From Bacteroidales bacterium (lineage in GTDB: Bacteria > Bacteroidota > Bacteroidia > Bacteroidales > F082): a stretch of DNA of 64,000 bases. Under the pieces are notes generated by a model. It saw only the letters and a list, made by a program, of their open reading frames with translations, had not been told where the DNA came from and searched no databases. Position numbers and translations under genes: made by a program. The stretch is taken from the NCBI GenBank assembly GCA_019454985.1, contig JACFNF010000009.1:31692-95691 (forward strand). The letters run 5' to 3'. The stretch's first letter is position 1. Each line of letters starts with the position of its first letter. Positions 5,001 to 62,689 of the stretch are shown here, in pieces.

Positions 5001-6011
5001 CTAAATACGCTGAAACTCGATGGTTGGCCAGCCTTTTTCACCACTATTGCTGTAAAAACCAATAAATCTCAGTTTAAAAACAAAACCGCTACGGGTTTTT
5101 ACAAAATAGACATTTTCGGGTCGGATTTCGTAATACACATTTCCGCTGTTCACATCGCCTTTCACCTCTTTCCAGTCGTAACCGATAATATCGGGTTTTG
5201 CCGTAAACGGGAGGTCATCAATTATTTCGGCCTGTATGCTGTCGAAATCAAGCCCTTTCACCAAACAGGCAAGAGTCTGCTCAGGATTGAGCAGGACTCC
5301 GGTGACCAAATAAGGATAAGGCTCGCCTTCGTTAGTAAAAAGCATGGTTGTATATTGGGTAAAAAGCAAGTCGTAAGCCTGTCCCGAAGGCTCGGGATAG
5401 CATTGCTCGTTGGTTTCAAACGAGAAATAGGCGAAGTTGCTGCTCCCCGATTTAGAGACGGTTGCACTCAAGGCTTCGTCACTATTAAGCAATCCATACC
5501 TGAAGAAATAATCGTTGCCTTTGAGGCTGTCGAGGATGATTTTGCGGTAGCCCAGACTGTTACCAAGGTCGTCATAGCCCAGATCAATCACATACACTTC
5601 ATGGCTGTAGAGGGTGTCGGCTCCTTCGATACGCATCCAGCCTCGAAACACCAATGAGTCGGCATTGCCCGACGAAGCATCAAAGTCGAAACGGAGGCCG
5701 GCAAGGTTTTTCACATCGTTAAACCGATAACGTCCGCTGGCTGCAGCCATACTGAAATTGGCTGAATTCAGAAAAATACCAGCCTTGCCCGGCCGGTTAT
5801 CGAAAACCAGACCAAACGCATTTTTATCGCTCTGTCCTCTGATCACTGAATCTTCCAAACTGTAGTAAAACTGGTATTTATAGGTCTGGGTCATTCCAAA
5901 AGAAGCCGTAATCTTTCCGCCACGGTCGGTTGGCGCGATGCGTTCATCCTCCTTGAAACAGGATGTGAGCCCCAGGGCCATCGCAAAGAACAGGGCAAGA
6001 TTAGTTTTCAT
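5001..6011 (-). CDS. HmuY-like lipoprotein (putative surface heme-binding protein)
   Basis: I start it at the internal Met (MKTNLALFFAMALGLTSCFKEDE), which gives a lipobox LTSC followed by an acidic KEDE surface-export-like signal. The longer track ORF (to 6170) would overlap the receptor gene by 170 nt. The C-terminus YFVKTRSGFVFKLRFIGFYSNSGEKGWPTIEFQRI resembles the HmuY C-terminal strands. It overlaps the receptor stop by 11 nt. Confidence 0.6.
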   Translation of the reverse strand: MKTNLALFFAMALGLTSCFKEDERIAPTDRGGKITASFGMTQTYKYQFYYSLEDSVIRGQSDKNAFGLVFDNRPGKAGIFLNSANFSMAAASGRYRFNDVKNLAGLRFDFDASSGNADSLVFRGWMRIEGADTLYSHEVYVIDLGYDDLGNSLGYRKIILDSLKGNDYFFRYGLLNSDEALSATVSKSGSSNFAYFSFETNEQCYPEPSGQAYDLLFTQYTTMLFTNEGEPYPYLVTGVLLNPEQTLACLVKGLDFDSIQAEIIDDLPFTAKPDIIGYDWKEVKGDVNSGNVYYEIRPENVYFVKTRSGFVFKLRFIGFYSNSGEKGWPTIEFQRI

Positions 6012-8247
6012 GATTCCGGCTGAATTTTTGAAAGCGGTAGGCCGCACGCACAAAAAAGGTTCTGCCCCATGCCACGGGTGCGCTTCCATCGCCGGCTCCG
6101 CTGTGGATTCCGCCCTGGCTATCCCCGCGGATGAGGATATTCGTGTTGCCAAACAGATTTTTCGCACCAAACTGTACCGTCAGTCGCTGCCCCAAAAAGC
6201 TACGCGACACATTGGCATCGAGCGAATGATACGCATCCATCAGGCTGCGAAATATTGCCCCGTCACTGTTGACAAACACTTCGGGATAAGCTCCATTGTA
6301 TTTATAATTCACATCGAAACGCAAATCTATCTTACGCCACAACAGACTGAGATTCGCCATAATATCAGTGCTATAAATCATTTTCACGGCTGCGGCTCCA
6401 TCCGTAATCTGCCTTCGACCTATTTGCCCAACCCCGGCTTTCAACTCAAACCAGGGGTAAAGCCGGTTATGAAATGAAAGCTGATAGCCCTGAGTAATCA
6501 TGCGGTTCAGGTTGACGTAGGTATAAAGGGCAGAGTCGTAACTGAGTGTGGCCAAGGTAATGCTGTTGTTGATTTTATTATAAAAAAAGCTTAGATCAGC
6601 ACCATAGTCATAAGTCTTTTTTTCGTGATGATAGCTCAAAGCAAGGTTAATATTCTTCGAATTTTCAGCCTTCAGATTTTCATTTCCCCTGATATTGTGG
6701 TTCACATCCACAAACTCGAGGTACAGCTCTTTGAGCGAGGGTGCTCTAAATCCTTTGGCAAAGCTGGCACGAAGGCTTAGTTCTTCACGCAAATCCCATT
6801 TCAGATTCAACGAATACACCAATGGTGCATTGTATTTGGTATTGAAGCCATATCTGAGGCCGGGTTGTAGCATCAGCAGCGGTGTGGGCTGTAATTTTAA
6901 GCTGAGAAAAGCCGCATAATCGCCAATTTGTTGTCGTTCGTCGAGCATGCGCTTGCCTGCCCCTGTTTCCTGATTCAAGTCAATACCAAACTGGTAGTTA
7001 AACCGGCTTTGGGTCGTGCTTTTACTAAACTCAGCCCTCAACAAATATTGCCCAAAGACCGAAGTATCCTGGTCGGAGCCATTCATAGTGAGGTTCTTTT
7101 CCAGGGTAGTCAGGTCAACGAAATAGGTATTTTTAATTCTATTGTAGTAAGAATAAGAAGCCAACACATTGATAAAACGATCTTTAGCCACTGGTGCCTG
7201 AGCATCGAACTTGGCCGAAAAACGATTGGTCTGGAAATAATTATCGAAAGCTGTTTCATAATAAGGCCTGAGCAAGTTGCCCTTATCCTGAAGCATCTCG
7301 TTGAAATATGAAACAGCTGTTTTGGCTTTAAGCTTGGTTGAAGTATATCCCAGATGAGCATCGGAAGTGTATTGTCGTTTGGGTTTCCATCGCATACTAC
7401 GCTGGTCTTCAATCTGATCGAAACCGTCGAAGAAGTTGCGTGCAGCAGCTATCCCGCTTGTCCAACGATTTTTTTTGAACGAGCCATCCATTGAAAAGTT
7501 ATAAACTCCTATACTTTCGGTATAGGCATTGGTCTGCACACTTATTGTGGAATAAGGATTGTCGCCGGTGATGATATTGATGACTCCTGCAAGCGCATTG
7601 CTTCCATAAATCACCGACATTGGCCCTTCGATCACTTCGATCTGTTTGATATTTTGAAGATTGAGCTGCCCCAGATCAATATTCCCATTCATCCGGCCAA
7701 TGAGCGGGACGCCGTCAATTAAAAACTTAATATGTTCACCTCCAAGTCCCTGCATGGTAATTTTCGAGCCCAACGCCCCATCCATCGAGGAACGGATATT
7801 GAGCTCACCAGCCATGAGCTCGCCCAGATTGGTGGACGCTTTTTGCTCAACCTGTTTCAAACTAATCACTTTCACCTTGAAAATGGATTTATCCACAGCT
7901 TCGGGGGTAAACTGGCCAGTAACCACCACCTCATCCATATTGTAAACCAAAGGTTCGAGCTTAATGATCTTTTTACTGCCGGTTTTAAGAGTGTCCGAAA
8001 ATAGCCGGTAGCCGAGGGCGCTCACTGTGAAAGCCAACGGCTCGCGGCTGCTGACTGCGATTTTTCCATCCAAATCGCTGACGTAAGTTTTGAATTCGCT
8101 CTTTCCGCGTTCTTGCATCATCACATGGGCAAAAGGCACAGATTCGCCATTTTTGGCGTCTTTCAGCCAGAGCTGTGCCTCCTGAGCCGACATCCTGAAT
8201 GAAATCAGCAAAAGCCCTGTTAAAAAAGTAAATCCAAAACGCATCAT
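6001..8247 (-). CDS. TonB-dependent receptor, heme/hemoglobin-receptor-like (HmuR-like)
   Basis: 748 aa with signal peptide ..FRMSAQEA, a CarboxypepD_reg-like N-terminus and a plug domain. The barrel carries GFRAPSLKELYLEFVDVNHNIRGNENLKAE, i.e. a FRAP box, a His and an NxxL box in the order described for heme TonB receptors. It is flanked on both sides by HmuY-like genes. Confidence 0.7.
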   Translation of the reverse strand: MMRFGFTFLTGLLLISFRMSAQEAQLWLKDAKNGESVPFAHVMMQERGKSEFKTYVSDLDGKIAVSSREPLAFTVSALGYRLFSDTLKTGSKKIIKLEPLVYNMDEVVVTGQFTPEAVDKSIFKVKVISLKQVEQKASTNLGELMAGELNIRSSMDGALGSKITMQGLGGEHIKFLIDGVPLIGRMNGNIDLGQLNLQNIKQIEVIEGPMSVIYGSNALAGVINIITGDNPYSTISVQTNAYTESIGVYNFSMDGSFKKNRWTSGIAAARNFFDGFDQIEDQRSMRWKPKRQYTSDAHLGYTSTKLKAKTAVSYFNEMLQDKGNLLRPYYETAFDNYFQTNRFSAKFDAQAPVAKDRFINVLASYSYYNRIKNTYFVDLTTLEKNLTMNGSDQDTSVFGQYLLRAEFSKSTTQSRFNYQFGIDLNQETGAGKRMLDERQQIGDYAAFLSLKLQPTPLLMLQPGLRYGFNTKYNAPLVYSLNLKWDLREELSLRASFAKGFRAPSLKELYLEFVDVNHNIRGNENLKAENSKNINLALSYHHEKKTYDYGADLSFFYNKINNSITLATLSYDSALYTYVNLNRMITQGYQLSFHNRLYPWFELKAGVGQIGRRQITDGAAAVKMIYSTDIMANLSLLWRKIDLRFDVNYKYNGAYPEVFVNSDGAIFRSLMDAYHSLDANVSRSFLGQRLTVQFGAKNLFGNTNILIRGDSQGGIHSGAGDGSAPVAWGRTFFVRAAYRFQKFSRNHEN

Positions 8248-8255
8248 AGGTCTGA

Positions 8256-9509
8256 CTAATGTTGCAACATCACTTTGGCAAGCAGCAACCTCCCATTGAT
8301 CCGCATCTCGGCAATATAAAGTCCATCGTGAAGATGGCGCAAATCAACCGAAGCAAAACGGTCGTTGACCAAAGCAGAATGAACCCTTTTCCCTGCGAGA
8401 TCGTAGAAAACGACTTCGGCGGTGCTGACCACATCGTCATTTACCCCAAGGCGCAACAAACCGCTGGTCGGGTTTGGGCTCACAACCAGTGCATTGTCTC
8501 GTTGATGGGAATCCAAAAGCCCTGAAAACGACAGCAACTCTTTCACAAAAGCGGTACTCCCCGTTGCTTGCCCACTAAAAAACTCGGGAAAAAACTTATA
8601 GATATTTCCATTCCGGTTTTTGATAAAATAGACCAAAGAATCTTCAACCGTCCAGGCAAACTGGCTCATACTGAACTCTTTCCATTCATGCCCGATAGGG
8701 GTCCGGTATTCTTCAAAAGGCTTAGCCATCCAGTCGGCAAAACCGACCTCAACAGGATGATGTTTTGCAACGCCAACGCCATTGTTGCTTGCAATTCCAA
8801 CGACCACATAATCAGAGGGTTGATTGTTATTGTCATAAACAATCGCGGAATAACGACTGAAAACCAAATCCCAACTATTGATATCCGGCTCACGATCAAT
8901 AGCCATTCCCAGACTCAGCGAATAGTAAAGAAACATACGATTGTCCATATAAGGTGTAATATCAAGCACTTCGCTCTTTTCGTTGGAACCATCAATGTCC
9001 GCATATTTGAAAAAATAGGTGTTGGTTACCGAGTTTTTTGACTCGATGAAAAGTTTTTTCAAGCTGCCGTTTGCCAGTTTGACAATGAAAAGCGAGTCGC
9101 CATTCACACTGTGGTTGATGGTATTATACACCCCCCAGCCATAATCGGGATGTCCCAAAGCATGGCGATTAAAGGCTCCATCCTCCCAGACAGTATCGCT
9201 GTTGACCATTGGAGTCCACTCATCAATTTGGCTGACATCCACATTGTTCCATGCGTTTTTATCGCCCAATGGATAGGTAAAAAGCTTGACTCCACCACCA
9301 TCATTCATCTGAATTCCTGCGCTCCAACGGTTGGTATAAAAGGCAATTTCCCAGTTGGCCCGCGTCTCAATTTTCACAATGCCGCTGTCGAGGCTGTAAA
9401 ACACATCATTGGCATAACCGGCTCCCATGGAAACGGTATCGCGAACAGGGTCGGCTTGCAGTTGAATGCTCATGAAAAGAATAAATAAAAAAGAATAAAT
9501 GTTTTTCAT
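8256..9509 (-). CDS. secreted protein with two HmuY-like repeats and a T9SS C-terminal sorting domain
   Basis: Start chosen at MKNIYSFLFILFMSIQLQA (the track ORF begins 24 nt earlier at 9533). There are two HmuY-like segments (NWEIAFYTNRWSAGIQMN.. and SWDLVFSRYSAIVYD.., and YFIKNRNGNIYKFFPEFF). The C-terminus LVVSPNPTSGLLRL...FYDLAGKRV...DGLYIAEMRINGRLLLAKVMLQH is a type-A T9SS CTD. Confidence 0.65.
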   Translation of the reverse strand: MKNIYSFLFILFMSIQLQADPVRDTVSMGAGYANDVFYSLDSGIVKIETRANWEIAFYTNRWSAGIQMNDGGGVKLFTYPLGDKNAWNNVDVSQIDEWTPMVNSDTVWEDGAFNRHALGHPDYGWGVYNTINHSVNGDSLFIVKLANGSLKKLFIESKNSVTNTYFFKYADIDGSNEKSEVLDITPYMDNRMFLYYSLSLGMAIDREPDINSWDLVFSRYSAIVYDNNNQPSDYVVVGIASNNGVGVAKHHPVEVGFADWMAKPFEEYRTPIGHEWKEFSMSQFAWTVEDSLVYFIKNRNGNIYKFFPEFFSGQATGSTAFVKELLSFSGLLDSHQRDNALVVSPNPTSGLLRLGVNDDVVSTAEVVFYDLAGKRVHSALVNDRFASVDLRHLHDGLYIAEMRINGRLLLAKVMLQH

Positions 9510-9630
9510 AATAGGTATATTATTATTAATCAATGTTTTAATGAATTATTCAAAGACAACTCAAAGGCCTAAAAATCAAGTCAAGGCCTGATTTCTCCGG
9601 AAAAAAGAAAAGAAAGGGAAGAAATTTTTA

Positions 9631-55997: not shown

Positions 55998-56648
55998 ATG
56001 CCTGACAAGCTTAATTTTGAACAATTGCTAAAGCAACGGCTGGGGGAACCCCTTCCGGGCTGGTCGGCTCAATCTCGTCTTGAACCCATCACCAGAAGGA
56101 TATCGCATCTCAGACAGCCCACAAACAACTCAAAGCCAAAAGAGAGCGCCGTGATGCTTTTGCTTCATTATCAGCATAGTGAGCTGTCGCTGGTTTTAAT
56201 TCAACGCTCTGTTTACGATGGTGTTCATAGCGGTCAGATTGCTTTTCCGGGTGGCCGTTTCGATTTGGAAGATCATGATCTGATGAAAACCGCCCAGCGC
56301 GAAACAAAGGAAGAAACCGGCATCGTCGTGCCTGATCATGCGATCTTAGGCCAATTGACCCCGCTCTATATCCCGCCAAGCAATTTTAACGTTCATCCTT
56401 TTGTGGGTTTTTTACCCGAACTTCCGCATTACAGTCCTGACCCAAAAGAGGTTGGACTAATTTTCACGGTAACGCTCAAAAAGCTCATGCAGCAAGATTG
56501 TCTGCAACAAAAAACCATCACTGCAAGTGATGGTTTGGTTTACGAAATACCTTGTTATGTCATTGGCTCTCATATCATCTGGGGGGCTACATCCATGATT
56601 TTAAGCGAATTTCTGGATGTCGTACAACCAGTGTTAGAAATCGTTTAG
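55998..56648 (+). CDS. NUDIX hydrolase, CoA pyrophosphatase type
   Basis: Start at MPDKLNFEQ, with a TATTTTTG box 10 nt upstream. Has the NUDIX box GGRFDLEDHDLMKTAQRETKEETGI preceded by the CoA-ase-type LVLIQRS....HSGQIAFPGG. Confidence 0.8.
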   Translation: MPDKLNFEQLLKQRLGEPLPGWSAQSRLEPITRRISHLRQPTNNSKPKESAVMLLLHYQHSELSLVLIQRSVYDGVHSGQIAFPGGRFDLEDHDLMKTAQRETKEETGIVVPDHAILGQLTPLYIPPSNFNVHPFVGFLPELPHYSPDPKEVGLIFTVTLKKLMQQDCLQQKTITASDGLVYEIPCYVIGSHIIWGATSMILSEFLDVVQPVLEIV

Positions 56649-57071: not shown

Positions 57072-58172
57072 TTAAAGGTTAGAATTGAATCCAATAAATC
57101 CGGGGATAACCCCGGCTGTCAATGAATCAATTTGCGTGCCATCAGGCCTATACCTGAAGATGTAACCTTTTTGTTGAAAATTGCCGGCATCTGTAACCAA
57201 CAACTGTGAGCTGAACGGATCAACCGCCAAACGGTAAAAATTGTGTTGTCCGGAAGCGACAAAAACGTTTTGAGGCAATGCAGTTGCGTCCACCGTCATC
57301 CTCCAGACGCCCTGATTCAAAAAGTAGAGGGTATCGCCTGAAGCGTTGATTGACAATTGTTCGGGCGAAATAGTTTTTTCTGCAAAAACAAATGTTCGTT
57401 CAATCTCGTGAGTATTGGCATTGATGCGATAAAGTGCAGGGTATTCCTCATTTAAATATCCTCCGCTGCACAAAACCCAGAGTTTCTGGTTCCGATCAAT
57501 CACCATACTGTTTGGCTCTTTCGTAACGATAATGCTATCAATCAACATATTGCGAGACGGGTCAATCACCTGAACGGTGTTATTTTCTGCAGTCTGACCA
57601 TAAGCCGACCAATTGGCAACAAACAGTTTTCCCTGTGCAAACAAGATATGTTCTGCCGTTCTTCCAAGATGGATATATCCTTCTGTTTCAAGATTTTGGG
57701 GGTTGAAAATACGCAAAGCTTTTTCCTGGAAATCGCTTATTACTGCCTTATTGTCATCTATCACACACACAAAACGCGGCGAAGCCATTCCGGCCATTTT
57801 CCCTTCAATCTCGGCTGTTTCGGCATTAATTTTCCAAATAATTCCGCTGTTGTTAACAACAACAAAGGCGCTTTTTTTCCAAAAAGCCATGGATTGAGCC
57901 ACATCGCCTAATGGAACGTTGTTTCTGATAAAAAAGATATTCTGCAACATTTTTCCTGAGTCGGCCTGAAAATAGGACAGAGTGGCATTCCCCATGGTAA
58001 AATTCCCTTCGTTGACCACATAAAACCCGCGTCCGAGAGAAAGCGGATGCCGGTTTTCGGGATTATCGTCCGGTTGTTTATGACACGATACGACCAACAA
58101 CACAAGGCCCACAAGCGCTAAAACGTTTCCTTGTTTAAGCAAACTTAAAATCATTTTTTGATGAGCTATCAT
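57072..58172 (-). CDS. YncE/BtuG-like beta-propeller surface lipoprotein (B12-regulon member)
   Basis: 366 aa with lipobox LLVVSC followed by HKQPDDNPE. It shows repeated blade-like strands (GFYVVNEGNF, SAFVVVNNSG, NKAVISDF, GKLFVANWS, QKLWVLCSGG, DTLYFLNQG, SQLLVTDAGN). An ATGA overlap links it to the BtuB-like receptor. Confidence 0.6.
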   Translation of the reverse strand: MIAHQKMILSLLKQGNVLALVGLVLLVVSCHKQPDDNPENRHPLSLGRGFYVVNEGNFTMGNATLSYFQADSGKMLQNIFFIRNNVPLGDVAQSMAFWKKSAFVVVNNSGIIWKINAETAEIEGKMAGMASPRFVCVIDDNKAVISDFQEKALRIFNPQNLETEGYIHLGRTAEHILFAQGKLFVANWSAYGQTAENNTVQVIDPSRNMLIDSIIVTKEPNSMVIDRNQKLWVLCSGGYLNEEYPALYRINANTHEIERTFVFAEKTISPEQLSINASGDTLYFLNQGVWRMTVDATALPQNVFVASGQHNFYRLAVDPFSSQLLVTDAGNFQQKGYIFRYRPDGTQIDSLTAGVIPGFIGFNSNL

Positions 58173-60115
58173 GGATGTAAATATTTTTCAAATGAATAGG
58201 AAACAACAAATTCAAAGTTACGTCCAGGCATAGGTCGCCACATTACTGCCTGATAATCAATGTCAAAAAGGTTGTTTAATTTCAAATCAACATTAAATTT
58301 TCGCCAACTCCAACCTATACCAAGATTCACCAATTGATAGGAAGGCAAATTTCCAAAAACTTCAAGATCATCGTTGTAGGTTGTCCGCCTCTGTCCGACG
58401 AGCTCAGTTCCAAAGCTTAGATAAACCCGGCGATAGTCAATACGGGCATTCAGATTTGCATGATGTTTTGGGATGTAGATCAACTGCTTACCCGCATAAT
58501 GCTGTTGATGAGCCGTTTGGCCCTCGTCTGTGGTAAGGGTAAAAGAGTAGTGCGCTTTGAACGACATATTCCAATGGCCGCGCACCAAAGAAACAGATTG
58601 ATAAAGCTCAGCACCCCGTGCAAACACCTGTGCAATATTTTCCGGAATCCAGTATCGAAATGAGGATGGCCGCCATTGTATCCAGTTTCTGATCCACGAA
58701 GCATGAATGGTGAACCGGCTTTCTGCCACCAAACCATTTTGCTGCGTTTGCCATGCAGTAAACATACTGGATTGCAATGCCTTTTCCGGAACGAGACGGG
58801 GGTTTCCTCCGGGGAACCAATACAAGTCGTTCATGGTTGGAAAACGTTGGGCCCGTCCTCCGGTAAGTCCAAAACTAACAGAGCTCAGGCTTTTAGGCAC
58901 GAATGTCATACTCATCGTCGGGCTTAAAGTTGCACGTTCGTGATTCATACGATCTAAACGAATCCCCAATCTGAGGTTGATTCCAGAGTCAAATTCACGC
59001 TCGCTGCTGGCAGAAAGGCCAAAAAAACGGCGTTGTTTGTGTTCAGGCAAATTATTGCTCCGCACCTGCTCCAGATCATACTGGGTTGAAACCTCCATGT
59101 GATACATTCCCAACTGCCGGCTCATCATCAAATGATTCTGCCAAACGGATGATTGATTTTCAGAATCAATGAGTGAAACGACCGCATAAGGCGGATAAGA
59201 CGAAGTCGTTTTCAGAAAATAGTGTTGCTTTTCAAAAAGAAGATTGGTACGCGCACTCAGGGTCATCGAACCGGAAAAATAGCGCCACGACAGCACATTA
59301 CGACTAAATTTTGTATTTTGATACTCTTCGGGACGGCCGCCGCGATCCACATTGGTCATAATCGGCGGCAACTGTCGTTCGTCCCATTGATTCCAACTCA
59401 CCAGCCCGAACAAACTCTTTCCTTTTCGATAGTAGAACTCTTGCTGAAAGCCTTTCACAGCATACTGTGCATTGACGTTCTCCATCTTCTGTTGCGGCCA
59501 TTGAGCAGTGTTCAAATACTCAAAATTGTTGAGGCTTGATTTACGAAAAGCCCTAATTCGGGCCTGCAACTTGCTGTTAGACAATGAGCCGCCAAAAAAG
59601 CTGCCAAAACTCTTATAACTGCCAACAGATTGCAAAAGTGATACTTGCAGTTTCTTCGACAGGTCGGGCAGATTGTTCACCGTCACCACACCTCCAATCC
59701 CGGTTATATGATGAATATCGGAAATACCAGCCTGAACAACAAGTTGGTCAACTAAAAACATGGGGATGGTTGAAAAATCAACCTGACCCAGTTGTGGACC
59801 ATTGATGAGTGCGCCATTCCACAAAACAAGGGTATGATTAGCCGTTGTTCCACGAAACGAAGCCGTGGCCAATCCACCATAACCATTTTCGCGAATAAAG
59901 ACCGGGCTGTTCAGGCCTAAAACCCCCGAAAGCGTCAGTGTTTTAGAGGTTTGAGCCATCATGCTGTCGAGCAACTGCAAGCGATCGTGAGGAACAGCCG
60001 TTATCGTTCTGGCAGTAACTTCCACCTGCTTCAGATAAACCGTATCAGGAATATCAGCCCGGCTTTGCAACGCCATAAGGCATATCCACACCACGATAAA
60101 CAGCCCAATCCTCAT
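58169..60115 (-). CDS. btuB: TonB-dependent transporter, BtuB-like (cobalamin/corrinoid)
   Basis: 648 aa with a signal peptide and a plug (ASFRGTTANHTLVLWNG). The short ~22-strand barrel size is typical of BtuB. It sits in an operon headed by a cobalamin riboswitch, and has 4-nt overlaps with both neighbours. Confidence 0.75.
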   Translation of the reverse strand: MRIGLFIVVWICLMALQSRADIPDTVYLKQVEVTARTITAVPHDRLQLLDSMMAQTSKTLTLSGVLGLNSPVFIRENGYGGLATASFRGTTANHTLVLWNGALINGPQLGQVDFSTIPMFLVDQLVVQAGISDIHHITGIGGVVTVNNLPDLSKKLQVSLLQSVGSYKSFGSFFGGSLSNSKLQARIRAFRKSSLNNFEYLNTAQWPQQKMENVNAQYAVKGFQQEFYYRKGKSLFGLVSWNQWDERQLPPIMTNVDRGGRPEEYQNTKFSRNVLSWRYFSGSMTLSARTNLLFEKQHYFLKTTSSYPPYAVVSLIDSENQSSVWQNHLMMSRQLGMYHMEVSTQYDLEQVRSNNLPEHKQRRFFGLSASSEREFDSGINLRLGIRLDRMNHERATLSPTMSMTFVPKSLSSVSFGLTGGRAQRFPTMNDLYWFPGGNPRLVPEKALQSSMFTAWQTQQNGLVAESRFTIHASWIRNWIQWRPSSFRYWIPENIAQVFARGAELYQSVSLVRGHWNMSFKAHYSFTLTTDEGQTAHQQHYAGKQLIYIPKHHANLNARIDYRRVYLSFGTELVGQRRTTYNDDLEVFGNLPSYQLVNLGIGWSWRKFNVDLKLNNLFDIDYQAVMWRPMPGRNFEFVVSYSFEKYLHP

Positions 60116-61095
60116 TGTTTCAGCAATTTCAACATCCAGCTTCCGTGATTATTTTGAATTTTCAGGCAATAAAATCCCGGCATCAGCCTTTGGGTAGAGA
60201 TCCATTCATGCGAAGAAACTTTCTGATGAATCATGATCGTTTTACCGAGAGCATCAAAAAACGTCACTTCACAGTCTGATTCCCCATTGATAAACAAAAA
60301 ATCTTTAAACGGATTTGGATATATATGATAAGGGCAAGCCGATATTTTGGTTACTGAGCTATAACGTTGATCGTAGATCACGCCGAGGGCATCAAGATCA
60401 AAACCTGAAGAAGGGAAAGGCGTCGGCCAGGGATCATTGATCAGATTTTCTTCGCTATCACGGCTTCCAAAGACCGGATCAATGGAGCCCACAACGTCAG
60501 TAATACGGATATAATGCACTGCATTCCGATCTAAATCCGGGTCGTCAAGCTCAGCCAAATCGAAAGGAGTACCATAGAGCCCACGATATTTTCCGGCCAG
60601 ATTATGAATTTTGACGGCCTCTAACACCCCAAAGCCATCAACCTGTGTTTGAGTCTGTGTGAGGGAGACCGAGCGAAAGCGGGCAAAATGCAGGCCATCG
60701 CTACTTACTTCCACATGGGCAAGTTCGAGAAAATCATTAGAGAAACTGTTTTCAAACACAGCAAAATCGGGTCCGGGACCGTCAATTACCGGGATTTCAA
60801 AATAATAAGTAAAACTTCCACCATCGCCTAAGCTCAACGCCACCAGATCGGCCTTCCCATAAGCATCACTCTCCGTTCCAAAAGTGGCCAATCCCATTTC
60901 AGGCTCATTGATTTTCATCAATCCCCTCTCGAGCTGACCATGACTCCCCCAGGCCACAAACACGCTGCTGTCGGCCGAAATGGCTGTAGTTCCTTCAATT
61001 CCCACAGCCGGTGCAAACTGTGCTACCGCCCTATCCAGCAAACCAGATACGAGCAGTAACACAAAAATTGTGAACAAGTATTTTTTCTTTATCAA
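60112..61095 (-). CDS. secreted protein of unknown function with T9SS C-terminal sorting domain (B12-regulon member)
   Basis: 327 aa with signal peptide ..LLDRAVAQ. The core contains GGSFTYYFEIPVIDGPGPDFAVFENSFSNDFLELAHVEVSSDGLHFARF. The CTD reads YHIYPNPFKDFLFING...LMPGFYCLKIQNNHGSWMLKLLKQ. Confidence 0.6.
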   Translation of the reverse strand: MIKKKYLFTIFVLLLVSGLLDRAVAQFAPAVGIEGTTAISADSSVFVAWGSHGQLERGLMKINEPEMGLATFGTESDAYGKADLVALSLGDGGSFTYYFEIPVIDGPGPDFAVFENSFSNDFLELAHVEVSSDGLHFARFRSVSLTQTQTQVDGFGVLEAVKIHNLAGKYRGLYGTPFDLAELDDPDLDRNAVHYIRITDVVGSIDPVFGSRDSEENLINDPWPTPFPSSGFDLDALGVIYDQRYSSVTKISACPYHIYPNPFKDFLFINGESDCEVTFFDALGKTIMIHQKVSSHEWISTQRLMPGFYCLKIQNNHGSWMLKLLKQ

Positions 61096-61099
61096 CGAT

Positions 61100-62386
61100 T
61101 TATTGTTTTAAAAAAGAGGCGCTATAACTTTTTCCTTTTGTGCTTAGAGCCATTACATGATAAACACCAGGCTTCAAACCCTCAACATTCAGGCTCCGGC
61201 CTGCCGTTCTTCCATCTTCTTTCCTTAACAGTTGACCAAATGACGAAAACAGTGATATTTCGGCAAATTGTGAATTATCGGGCAAACTAAGCATAATATT
61301 TCCTTTTGCCGGGTTTGGATAAACCGTCAGAGACATCGCTTGTTTTTCATTCATAAAACTTGTCGTCCGATATTCCAATGCAAGAGCCTCTGCTGAAATA
61401 CCGGCATCAAATGTTCCGGTTTGCACCCCATCTTTTGAATAAATGAATCCGGCGCCCATCGAGAAATAATCAGTGATGGTTGCATAAAATTTTTCGCCCA
61501 GGTGGTCAAAAACAATATCGGCATAATTGATGAACGAAGCAGATCCCGGATCGGGTAACAAAGTCGGGTTTGTAATGGTCAGGCTCATCAGATCAAAAAT
61601 ACCTACGGCATCATTCACGAGCAGATAAAGCTGATCATTATGAATTGCAATGCCTTTCCCCAGGTTATAAGGCAAGGTGTGATGCGTAACACTTTTGTTG
61701 ATAGGATCAAAAAATGAAATCACACCGGTTGAGCTCCCCCAGGCCGAGCGATTGACAGCAACAATTTTATTGTTAAAAGCGAACAAATCGTGAATACCTG
61801 CTCCAGACTCCTGAAAATCAATCTCTTCGATAAAGGAGCCATCAGTTGCATTCAGAATGGCCATTTTTCCAACCGTACTGGTCCAGTCGCCTGGCACAGC
61901 CACATATACTTTCCCATCGAAATCGAGCATTGTAGCTGTTTCGCCGCTCACCTGACTTACAACATTCAGTGTTGCAAGGTTTTCTTTATCGAGTACACGT
62001 ACAAAATTCTCTGTCAGCGGGTATTGCATACCTACAAACAGCAAGTCGCCTGACACGTGAAGATAGCGAACACCCGGCAAAGCAATGGCAGCAATTCGTT
62101 GATAAGTATCCAAATCATAACAAACAAGGCTATCCGTTGCCGTAACATAAAGGCGATTACCATCAACCAAAGCATCCTGCACCGCCTGGGTTCGGATTTG
62201 GCCAAACGGCATGGTAAGACCGGTTTGAGGATTGAATGACCCTAACTCAACAAAGTCGTCGGGATTGGAATAAGCGCCTCCTGAAACGACAATAAGTTGG
62301 TGTAGTGATTGTTGTGCCATCAATCCGGCGCTAAAAAACCAAACAAAGGCCAGCAGAAAATGGCGTAAAGAGAAAAAATTAAACAT
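61100..62386 (-). CDS. beta-propeller-like secreted protein with T9SS C-terminal sorting domain (B12-regulon member)
   Basis: 428 aa with signal peptide ..SAGLMAQQ. It has blade-like repeats (QLIVVSGGAYSN, NRLYVTATD, DLLFVGMQ, GKVYVAVPGD, NKIVAVNRS, DQLYLLVND, EKFYATITD). The CTD reads LTVYPNPAKGNIMLSL...LKPGVYHVMALSTKGKSYSASFLKQ. It is the first gene after the riboswitch. Confidence 0.6.
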   Translation of the reverse strand: MFNFFSLRHFLLAFVWFFSAGLMAQQSLHQLIVVSGGAYSNPDDFVELGSFNPQTGLTMPFGQIRTQAVQDALVDGNRLYVTATDSLVCYDLDTYQRIAAIALPGVRYLHVSGDLLFVGMQYPLTENFVRVLDKENLATLNVVSQVSGETATMLDFDGKVYVAVPGDWTSTVGKMAILNATDGSFIEEIDFQESGAGIHDLFAFNNKIVAVNRSAWGSSTGVISFFDPINKSVTHHTLPYNLGKGIAIHNDQLYLLVNDAVGIFDLMSLTITNPTLLPDPGSASFINYADIVFDHLGEKFYATITDYFSMGAGFIYSKDGVQTGTFDAGISAEALALEYRTTSFMNEKQAMSLTVYPNPAKGNIMLSLPDNSQFAEISLFSSFGQLLRKEDGRTAGRSLNVEGLKPGVYHVMALSTKGKSYSASFLKQ

Positions 62387-62504
62387 AAAAAAAACAGTTT
62401 TAAGGTTAAACGTTCAACGACCTCAAAACTTCTGGGAAAATTGCCGATGGTGAGAAACACGCCGACAAGCTTTTATCCCGAAAGCTTTGTTCAAAACAAA
62501 TGAT

Positions 62505-62650
62505 CGTGGCAGGTCTTCTGACTTACTCTCCCTCCGAAGCCTTCCCATGCCTTAAACGACACAGTGGCAACGATTTTCGGAGGCTTGAAACGAGCTTACA
62601 GCAGCGGGTACTGTCCGGGATTTACACCCGGTTCCCTTTTAAGCATGCAG
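62505..62650 (-). promoter_or_regulatory. cobalamin (AdoCbl-type) riboswitch aptamer
   Basis: The minus strand reads AAAAGGGAACCGGGTGTAAATCCCGGACAGTACCCGCTGCTGTAAGC (62640->62594), GTTGCCACTGTG (62571->62560), GGGAAGGC (62546->62539) and the B12 box AGTCAGAAGACCTGCC (62523->62508). A CCTCCGAA/TTCGGAGG helix encloses the GCCACTG element. It lies 120 nt upstream of the first ORF of the operon. Confidence 0.9.
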
Positions 62651-62681
62651 ATTGAATTCTACATAAGCACCAAAATCGGTG

Positions 62682-62689
62682 CAAATATA
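62682..62689 (-). promoter_or_regulatory. Bacteroidota-type -7 promoter box (TAnnTTTG) for the riboswitch/B12 operon
   Basis: Minus-strand TATATTTG, ~35 nt upstream of the conserved riboswitch core. Confidence 0.45.

Follow-up and report, generated by a model that had tools for sequence, protein, structure and literature searches.

Nearly all that is known of how Bacteroidota capture vitamin B12 was learned in Bacteroides. BtuG is a surface lipoprotein that forms the lid of BtuB (PMC13616437). All 114 BtuG homologues analyzed by Wexler et al. were predicted to be surface lipoproteins with an export signal (PMC6143338), and BtuG, BtuH, BtuJ, BtuK, and BtuL are described as lipoproteins in a 2026 review (PMC13616437). 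Here we describe a cobalamin riboswitch operon in a 64,000-nucleotide stretch of DNA, the window, from a Bacteroidales bacterium (GenBank assembly GCA_019454985.1, contig JACFNF010000009.1, positions 31,692 to 95,691 of the forward strand). In this operon, a BtuB-type TonB-dependent transporter and a BtuG lipoprotein are preceded by two open reading frames, ORF-A and ORF-B, whose products end in the type-A C-terminal domain (CTD) of proteins exported by the type IX secretion system (T9SS).

A preliminary description of the window had stated that the known accessory proteins of B12 capture are lipoproteins, and both sources agree with this. It was also aware of no T9SS cargo described as part of a B12 regulon; our literature search for T9SS cargo tied to the capture of B12 or corrinoids found no report, and the B12 papers searched for it do not mention the T9SS. 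Known T9SS cargo consists mostly of proteases, glycanases, adhesins, and motility proteins. To our knowledge, Bacteroides has no T9SS, and this would explain why the binders of the studied systems are lipoproteins only.

The predicted ORF-A protein resembles BtuG (BT1954, BT2095; PDB 8BMZ, 8OKV, 3DSM) in being a seven-bladed propeller of the same size, with its gene beside btuB and behind a cobalamin riboswitch. Unlike BtuG, it lacks a lipobox; its leader is of the signal-peptidase-I type, it ends in a T9SS CTD, and it is encoded together with a canonical BtuG rather than in its place. The locus also recalls BtuJ, BtuH, and BtuK of the B. thetaiotaomicron relay: in both, the accessory genes come first in a btu operon under riboswitch control, and their products are presumed to provide extra capture ahead of BtuG–BtuB. 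Those proteins are lipoproteins, partly vesicle-borne, whereas ORF-A, ORF-B, and the domains found at related loci carry T9SS CTDs; in fold, ORF-A follows BtuG rather than BtuH or BtuJ, which is a jelly roll. The hemophore systems HmuY–HmuR of Porphyromonas and HasA–HasR share the logic of an exported ligand catcher that feeds an adjoining TonB-dependent transporter, but they differ in ligand and fold, and their likeness to ORF-A is one of mechanism, not of membership. With other T9SS type-A cargo, ORF-A and ORF-B have in common a Sec signal, a Gln just past the predicted cleavage site, and a beta-sandwich CTD.

We read ORF-A and ORF-B as a putative T9SS-delivered corrinoid capture module that would feed BtuG–BtuB, in an uptake operon repressed through the B12 riboswitch; we put the probability of this reading at roughly 0.6. 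The BtuB–BtuG pair was already known, and the T9SS-tagged BtuG-type propeller is a departure from it, accompanied by an uncharacterized domain.

Export signals and the relation of ORF-A to BtuG

The riboswitch announced in the preliminary description is a full-length match to RF00174 (model positions 1–189 of 189) with 105.5 bits (gathering score 31.5; E 2.2e-25), and it ends 104 nt ahead of the ORF-A start on the same strand. The last two products of the cassette are also what they had been taken for. The transporter carries a Plug domain, and its best PDB relatives are BtuB3 (8p97, E 2e-62) and BtuB2 (8bmx_C, E 1e-58) of B. thetaiotaomicron; its best NCBIfam matches are TonB-B12/BtuB models, all far under the curated cut-offs. 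The lipoprotein of 366 amino acids is a clear BtuG (PF16819, DUF5074, E 9e-20; PDB chains of BtuG3 and BtuG2, E 1.7e-64 to 4.7e-58), with the lipobox ...LVVS/C and acidic residues shortly past the Cys. Eleven residues of BtuG2 contact the corrin (PMC13616437). The BtuG of the operon keeps eight of them (E55, F58, Q93, N107, S131, S195, Y239, and Y316) and differs at Y196 (A), Q219 (E), and Y335 (F). From these identities, the operon holds the BtuB–BtuG pair as described for Bacteroides.

Both proteins encoded ahead of this pair had been said to end in T9SS type-A CTDs, and both passed the curated cut-offs of the two models for this domain (27 bits for PF18962 and 23 bits for TIGR04183). ORF-A scored 37.2 and 33.4 bits, and ORF-B scored 41.2 and 45.8 bits, respectively. 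The two domains resemble the CTDs solved with the SprA translocon of the T9SS (8GLJ, 8GLK), and in the AlphaFold2 (AF2) models each forms a separate beta-sandwich past a short low-confidence linker. By inspection, both proteins have Sec leaders with a hydrophobic core followed by Ala-Gln and no lipobox; AF2 models these leaders as an N-terminal helix. The N terminus of ORF-A (MFNFFSLRHFLLAFVWFFSAGLMAQQ...) contains no Cys, and it lacks the lipoprotein export signal that BtuG has.

The propeller was modeled from a family alignment of 40 members. The AF2 model of ORF-A (mean predicted local distance difference test score, pLDDT, 90.8) has 28 strands arranged in seven blades of four across residues 25–342, with about 45 residues per blade; six to seven recurrences at roughly this spacing had been noted in the preliminary description. 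In a Foldseek search of the PDB, ranks 1–11 were all BtuG structures (BT1954, BT2095, BACUNI_02894), with a template-modeling (TM) score normalized to the target of 0.72–0.78 and a root-mean-square deviation (rmsd) of 3.3–4.5 Å; for other propellers the rmsd was above 6. A comparison of the ORF-A propeller family with 59 BtuG sequences by hhalign gave a probability of 98.5% (E 1.8e-15) over 282 columns, which is the whole propeller, and the control families DUF4465 and DUF4430 stayed below 1%. A BtuG-family hidden Markov model (HMM) matched ORF-A at E 7.8e-7, and 5 of the 40 family members passed PF16819, the best with E 2e-8.

This relation is distant, with an identity of about 14–15%. Pairwise BLASTP of ORF-A against the BtuG of the operon was not significant (E 0.13), and searches of PDB sequences by phmmer and hmmsearch, with ORF-A and with its family as queries, matched the CTD only. 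The hhalign alignment starts with QLIVVSGGAYSN of ORF-A paired with GLFITNEGNFQYSN of BtuG2, and phmmer aligns the latter with GFYVVNEGNFTM of the window lipoprotein; this start coincides with the similar first strand that had been pointed out in the two window proteins. Thus the distant paralogy proposed between the 428-residue protein and the lipoprotein, to which BLASTP is blind, was borne out by profile and fold, as was the idea that one fold is delivered by two export routes, lipoprotein and T9SS. The profile and structure searches that had been suggested as a check for a relation to corrinoid-binding propellers found one and gave no refutation. Judged by profile, modeled fold, and gene context, ORF-A is a true homologue of BtuG; it stands outside BtuG as defined, since it has no lipoprotein signal, differs at most corrin contacts, and falls below the Pfam threshold.

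ORF-A homologues of 553–571 amino acids occur at five loci (L039, L046, L049, L050, and L072); in these, an additional stretch of about 140 residues separates the propeller from the CTD.

ORF-B and the first position of the operon

Relatives of ORF-A were found in 80 species-level genomes at 28–72% identity. Most belong to Bacteroidales/Lentimicrobiaceae, and others to Marinilabiliales, Prolixibacteraceae, Flavobacteriales, and Chitinophagales. Downstream sequence was long enough to score gene order at 60 loci: 49 had ORF-A, ORF-B, the TonB-dependent transporter, and BtuG in the order of the window; two had ORF-A, transporter, ORF-B, and BtuG; two had ORF-A, ORF-B, and transporter; two had ORF-A, transporter, and BtuG; and in five ORF-A was alone. 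By Rfam, a riboswitch lay directly upstream of the ORF-A homologue at 8 of 8 loci, and an nhmmer profile found it upstream at 69 of the 78 loci having upstream sequence. The cassette and its riboswitch are conserved across many Bacteroidota; a survey of gene neighborhoods behind B12 riboswitches had been proposed in the preliminary description. The complete cassette is present in the cultured Acidiluteibacter ferrifornacis S-15 (L077). In Draconibacterium (L052, the cultured D. orientale; L055, 8004..9275), the riboswitch is followed by an ORF-A homologue alone and then by unrelated chemotaxis-type genes, with neither BtuB nor BtuG nearby; this fits a protein able to act in trans.

The variation in these loci includes two Chitinophagales cases (L079, 9275..11536; L080) in which the place of ORF-B is held by a 536-residue FGE-sulfatase-domain protein (PF03781) and an ORF of 209 residues with no Pfam match. 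Close relatives of the window also keep a wider synteny (NUDIX, ClpS, NfeD, FloA, RelA). The full cassette was also found in metagenome-assembled genomes filed as "Candidatus Woesearchaeota archaeon" and "Chlorobiota bacterium" (L078, L039, L042), whose cassette contigs are probably mis-binned.

When the search was started from ORF-B, the gene in front of it proved to vary. Three ORF-B relatives picked at random each lay behind a riboswitch, and the gene before ORF-B encoded DUF4465 with a CTD (L090), DUF4430 with a CTD (L087), or a CTD protein of 587 residues (L089). The gene directly upstream of ORF-B was then classified with our own HMMs in 80 metagenome loci. It was DUF4430-like with a CTD in 22, DUF4465 with a CTD in 16, of the ORF-A type with a CTD in eight, DUF5074 with a CTD in three, another CTD protein in two, and DUF4465 without a detected CTD in one. 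A BtuG lipoprotein preceded ORF-B in six loci and the riboswitch itself in five; six had no detected feature, and 11 ended at the contig edge. BtuG or the transporter lay downstream. Pfam bore out the DUF4430 label in six of eight sampled loci. At L110 and L118, the single loci sampled for the other two labels, it confirmed DUF4465 and DUF5074, respectively, each with Por_Secre_tail.

B12 binding by BtuJ (DUF4465) and BtuG has been shown experimentally (PMC13616437), and transcobalamin-type proteins have DUF4430 as their C-terminal domain (PMC4350170). The first slot of the operon thus appears to accept several known or homology-inferred corrinoid-binding folds, each with a T9SS CTD, and ORF-A would be the BtuG-fold version. 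This interchangeability is the strongest indirect argument for ORF-A as a T9SS-exported corrinoid capture protein.

The same domains also occur in one chain with ORF-B. About 30 of 147 representatives (those newly returned of the 150 listed) combine a DUF4430-like or DUF4465 domain with the ORF-B domain, most of them with a CTD; among the matches listed there were also one propeller–B–CTD fragment and one B–BtuG-like–CTD protein. ORF-B is thus fused to all three types of binder, which suggests that ORF-B and the binders act in physical association. Its putative tie to B12 is drawn from association and these fusions. Tandem ORF-B genes (L101, L102, L106) or two ORF-B domains in a single chain (P0207) were seen as well.

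The core of ORF-B, 225 amino acids, is about 45–60% identical to that of diverse relatives and has the conserved motifs SLGDGG, GPGPDFAVFEN, FLELA.VEVSSDG, NDPWPTPF, and SGFDLDA. The family comprises 1909 clusters at 50% identity with E <= 1e-3, and 638 with E <= 1e-30. The preliminary description could not assign this core, and neither could we: searches of Pfam, NCBIfam, and PDB sequences with the single sequence and with a profile found the CTD alone, and a Pfam scan of 30 relatives likewise yielded no other domain. The AF2 model (pLDDT 89.2) shows the core as a beta-sandwich. With the full model, Foldseek returned weak two-domain matches (GH2 N-terminal jelly roll plus immunoglobulin domain) at a TM score of about 0.2. 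We considered ORF-B as a divergent BtuJ and rejected this, because hhalign of the core against the DUF4465, DUF4430, BtuG, and ORF-A families gave less than 1% in every case; neither 7BIZ nor 9I2L was among the PDB sequence matches or the top 50 Foldseek matches.

ORF-A and ORF-B might be T9SS cargo with no link to B12, adhesins or enzymes for example, that simply happens to be co-transcribed with btuBG in this genome. The function of ORF-B could not be assigned by the Pfam, NCBIfam, PDB, and Foldseek searches, and CTD proteins are numerous in such genomes, with a third one in this window. We nevertheless hold this explanation to be close to refuted, for the arrangement, riboswitch included, is kept at 28–60% identity across Bacteroidales, Flavobacteriales, and Chitinophagales, and ORF-B occurs in the B12 clusters of the metagenome sample and in fusions with B12-binding domains.

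Another explanation makes ORF-A an alternative lid of BtuB, anchored through the T9SS and not by lipid, which competes with the BtuG lipoprotein or replaces it. The full-length homology and fold likeness of ORF-A to BtuG, itself the lid of BtuB (PMC13616437), speak for such a role, as does the tight operon linkage between ORF-A and BtuB. It is very unlikely all the same: nearly every cassette also encodes a canonical BtuG lipoprotein, ORF-A can occur by itself behind a riboswitch and away from any transporter gene, and the slot is interchangeable with binders that are not propellers. Since the canonical lid is co-encoded and ORF-A can stand alone, ORF-A is better seen as a distal capture protein, in the manner of BtuJ, BtuH, or BtuK of B. 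thetaiotaomicron, than as a lid.

The proposed capture route

Under the preferred reading, a corrinoid capture module delivered by the T9SS, the riboswitch would repress an outer-membrane corrinoid uptake operon of a T9SS-bearing member of the Bacteroidota, probably one of the Lentimicrobiaceae or of another Bacteroidales lineage. ORF-A and ORF-B would be exported via Sec and then leave through the T9SS by means of their type-A CTDs. After removal of its CTD, ORF-A could stay attached to the surface or be released; it would capture corrinoids outside the cell and pass them to BtuG–BtuB. ORF-B would be the constant partner, beside or fused to whichever binder fills the first slot, and may bind at a second site, mediate hand-off, or serve for docking. 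We infer T9SS dependence, corrinoid binding by ORF-A, hand-off to BtuG–BtuB, and any role of ORF-B from sequence and models. ORF-A is genetically linked to btuB and to a corrinoid riboswitch, as BtuG is.

Several results weigh against this reading. ORF-A itself lies under the PF16819 threshold, with no match at E < 0.1. It keeps only three of the 11 corrin-contact residues of BtuG2; two of the contacts fall in gaps, and six are replaced, including E55, N107, S195, and Y316. A propeller encoded in a B12 operon need not bind B12, as BtuK2 does not (PMC13616437). ORF-B has no relation to BtuJ, BtuH, DUF4430, or BtuG that was detectable by sequence, profile, or Foldseek. Export of both proteins by the T9SS is predicted from their own CTDs and leaders only. 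Finally, nine of the 78 ORF-A loci had no cobalamin riboswitch by nhmmer, and none of the nine had one by Rfam either.

The contact residues bear above all on the possibility that ORF-A is a BtuG-derived propeller that does not bind corrinoids and has another accessory role, as a partner of a foreign B12 carrier, a surface partner, or a structural component as proposed for BtuK2. Eight of 11 contacts are changed or deleted, and with BtuK2 a propeller that does not bind B12 is already known from a B12 operon (PMC13616437). G36, D85 (which adjoins the N107 position), and G166, which stand in place of contact residues, are nearly invariant in the family; the face is therefore under constraint, though corrin need not be the cause. 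On the other side, conservation at the contact-aligned positions of the ORF-A family was 0.74 against 0.55 elsewhere (permutation P ~0.008); the face equivalent to that of BtuG is thus apparently constrained, though the pocket is unlike that of BtuG. The three contacts that are kept are highly conserved (all 40 members have Q at Q93, the invariant Q70 of ORF-A; 39 have Y or F at F58, and 38 have Y at Y335), BtuG paralogues vary in the details of the pocket and still bind (PMC13616437), and elsewhere the slot holds CTD-tagged DUF4465 and DUF5074, families with demonstrated B12 binding. We therefore regard a non-binding ORF-A as unlikely, although it is the most serious of the alternatives.

A broader version of the capture reading is that T9SS-bearing Bacteroidota export hemophore-like "corrinophores", soluble or attached to the surface, of at least three folds and each with a T9SS sorting domain, and that ORF-B is an obligatory new component, either a new class of corrinoid binder or an adaptor that docks the loaded binders onto BtuG–BtuB. 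We offer this tentatively, as possible but doubtful.

The data suggest that in many Bacteroidota the B12 catchers leave the cell by a route that is not known to have been described for B12 capture. If this is true, export in the extracellular B12 relay can take a second path, widely used in environmental and many host-associated Bacteroidota, and the T9SS gains a class of nutrient-scavenging cargo. Released binders could then sequester corrinoids at a distance and shape competition for the vitamin in sediments, sludge, oceans, and guts. ORF-B, as a large conserved family that has no characterized member and is tied to B12 operons by position and fusion, is a defined target for biochemistry, and the cultured carrier A. 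ferrifornacis S-15 makes the hypothesis directly testable.

Operon layout and neighboring features

The features of the operon are collected in Table 1. The two reading frames given in the preliminary description were recovered with the stated lengths and with the C termini quoted for them, and public gene calls for WBZO01000817 (GCA_009612915.1) have the identical four products. ORF-A and ORF-B are separated by 4 nt. Both of the 4-nt ATGA overlaps reported before were located, one at 60115..60112 between the ORF-B stop and the transporter start, the other at 58172..58169 between the transporter stop and the BtuG start.

Table 1 Features of the B12 riboswitch operon in the window
Feature	Positions	Strand	Basis
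Cobalamin riboswitch aptamer, 5' leader of the operon	62689..62491	−	RF00174
ORF-A, 428 aa	62386..61100	−	ORF list and domain searches
ORF-A signal peptide, ...GLMA/QQ	about residues 1–24	−	inspection
ORF-A predicted seven-bladed BtuG-like propeller	residues 25–343, 62314..61358	−	AF2, Foldseek, and hhalign
ORF-A T9SS type-A CTD	residues 352–428, 61333..61103	−	PF18962, TIGR04183
ORF-B, 327 aa, TTG start	61095..60112	−	ORF list and domain searches
ORF-B signal peptide, ...AVA/QF	N terminus	−	inspection
ORF-B beta-sandwich core, no assigned family	residues 26–250, 61020..60346	−	AF2
ORF-B T9SS type-A CTD	residues 256–327, 60330..60115	−	PF18962, TIGR04183
BtuB-type TonB-dependent corrinoid transporter, 648 aa	60115..58169	−	Plug domain and PDB matches
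BtuG surface lipoprotein, 366 aa	58172..57072	−	PF16819 and PDB BtuG matches
OsmC-family gene, 139 aa	57064..56645	−	PF02566, E 5e-18
Terminator-like hairpin with T-run, candidate operon end	56536..56512	−	consensus match only

The OsmC-family gene starts 7 nt past the BtuG stop and is probably the last gene of the transcription unit. The hairpin 3' of it has an 11-pair stem followed by TTTGTTGCAG, by consensus match only. Of the 49 complete cassettes, 25 have a gene of this family behind BtuG, and these come from distant taxa; its product is thiol-peroxidase-like.

A scan of the leader for sigma-70 promoters and terminators did not resolve the expression platform of the riboswitch. The TAnnTTTG box at 62689..62682 was not called as a promoter, as it overlaps the first bases of the Rfam model. 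The ORF-A loci without a riboswitch (L045, L047, L048, L056, L058, L061, L066, L068, and L069) have short leaders. A palindrome-like box, GTAAAATTATCA-N5-7-TTGATAA, is common to five of them (L047, L056, L061, L068, and L069) and lies shortly before a TAnnTTTG box; a protein may use this palindrome-like box as its operator in place of the riboswitch.

The third CTD protein of the window (8256..9533, minus strand) indicates that CTD cargo is not unique to the B12 operon, and nothing beyond that. It has 425 residues, with an HmuY-like hemophore domain (PF14064, 31.3 bits) and a T9SS CTD (PF18962, 29.3 bits), and is encoded directly upstream of a TonB-dependent transporter (6001..8247, minus strand) and a second HmuY-like ORF (5001..6170, minus strand). 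Besides the B12 operon, the genome therefore has another ligand-catching domain that carries a T9SS sorting signal and is encoded next to a transporter; elsewhere, this domain is known as a lipoprotein.

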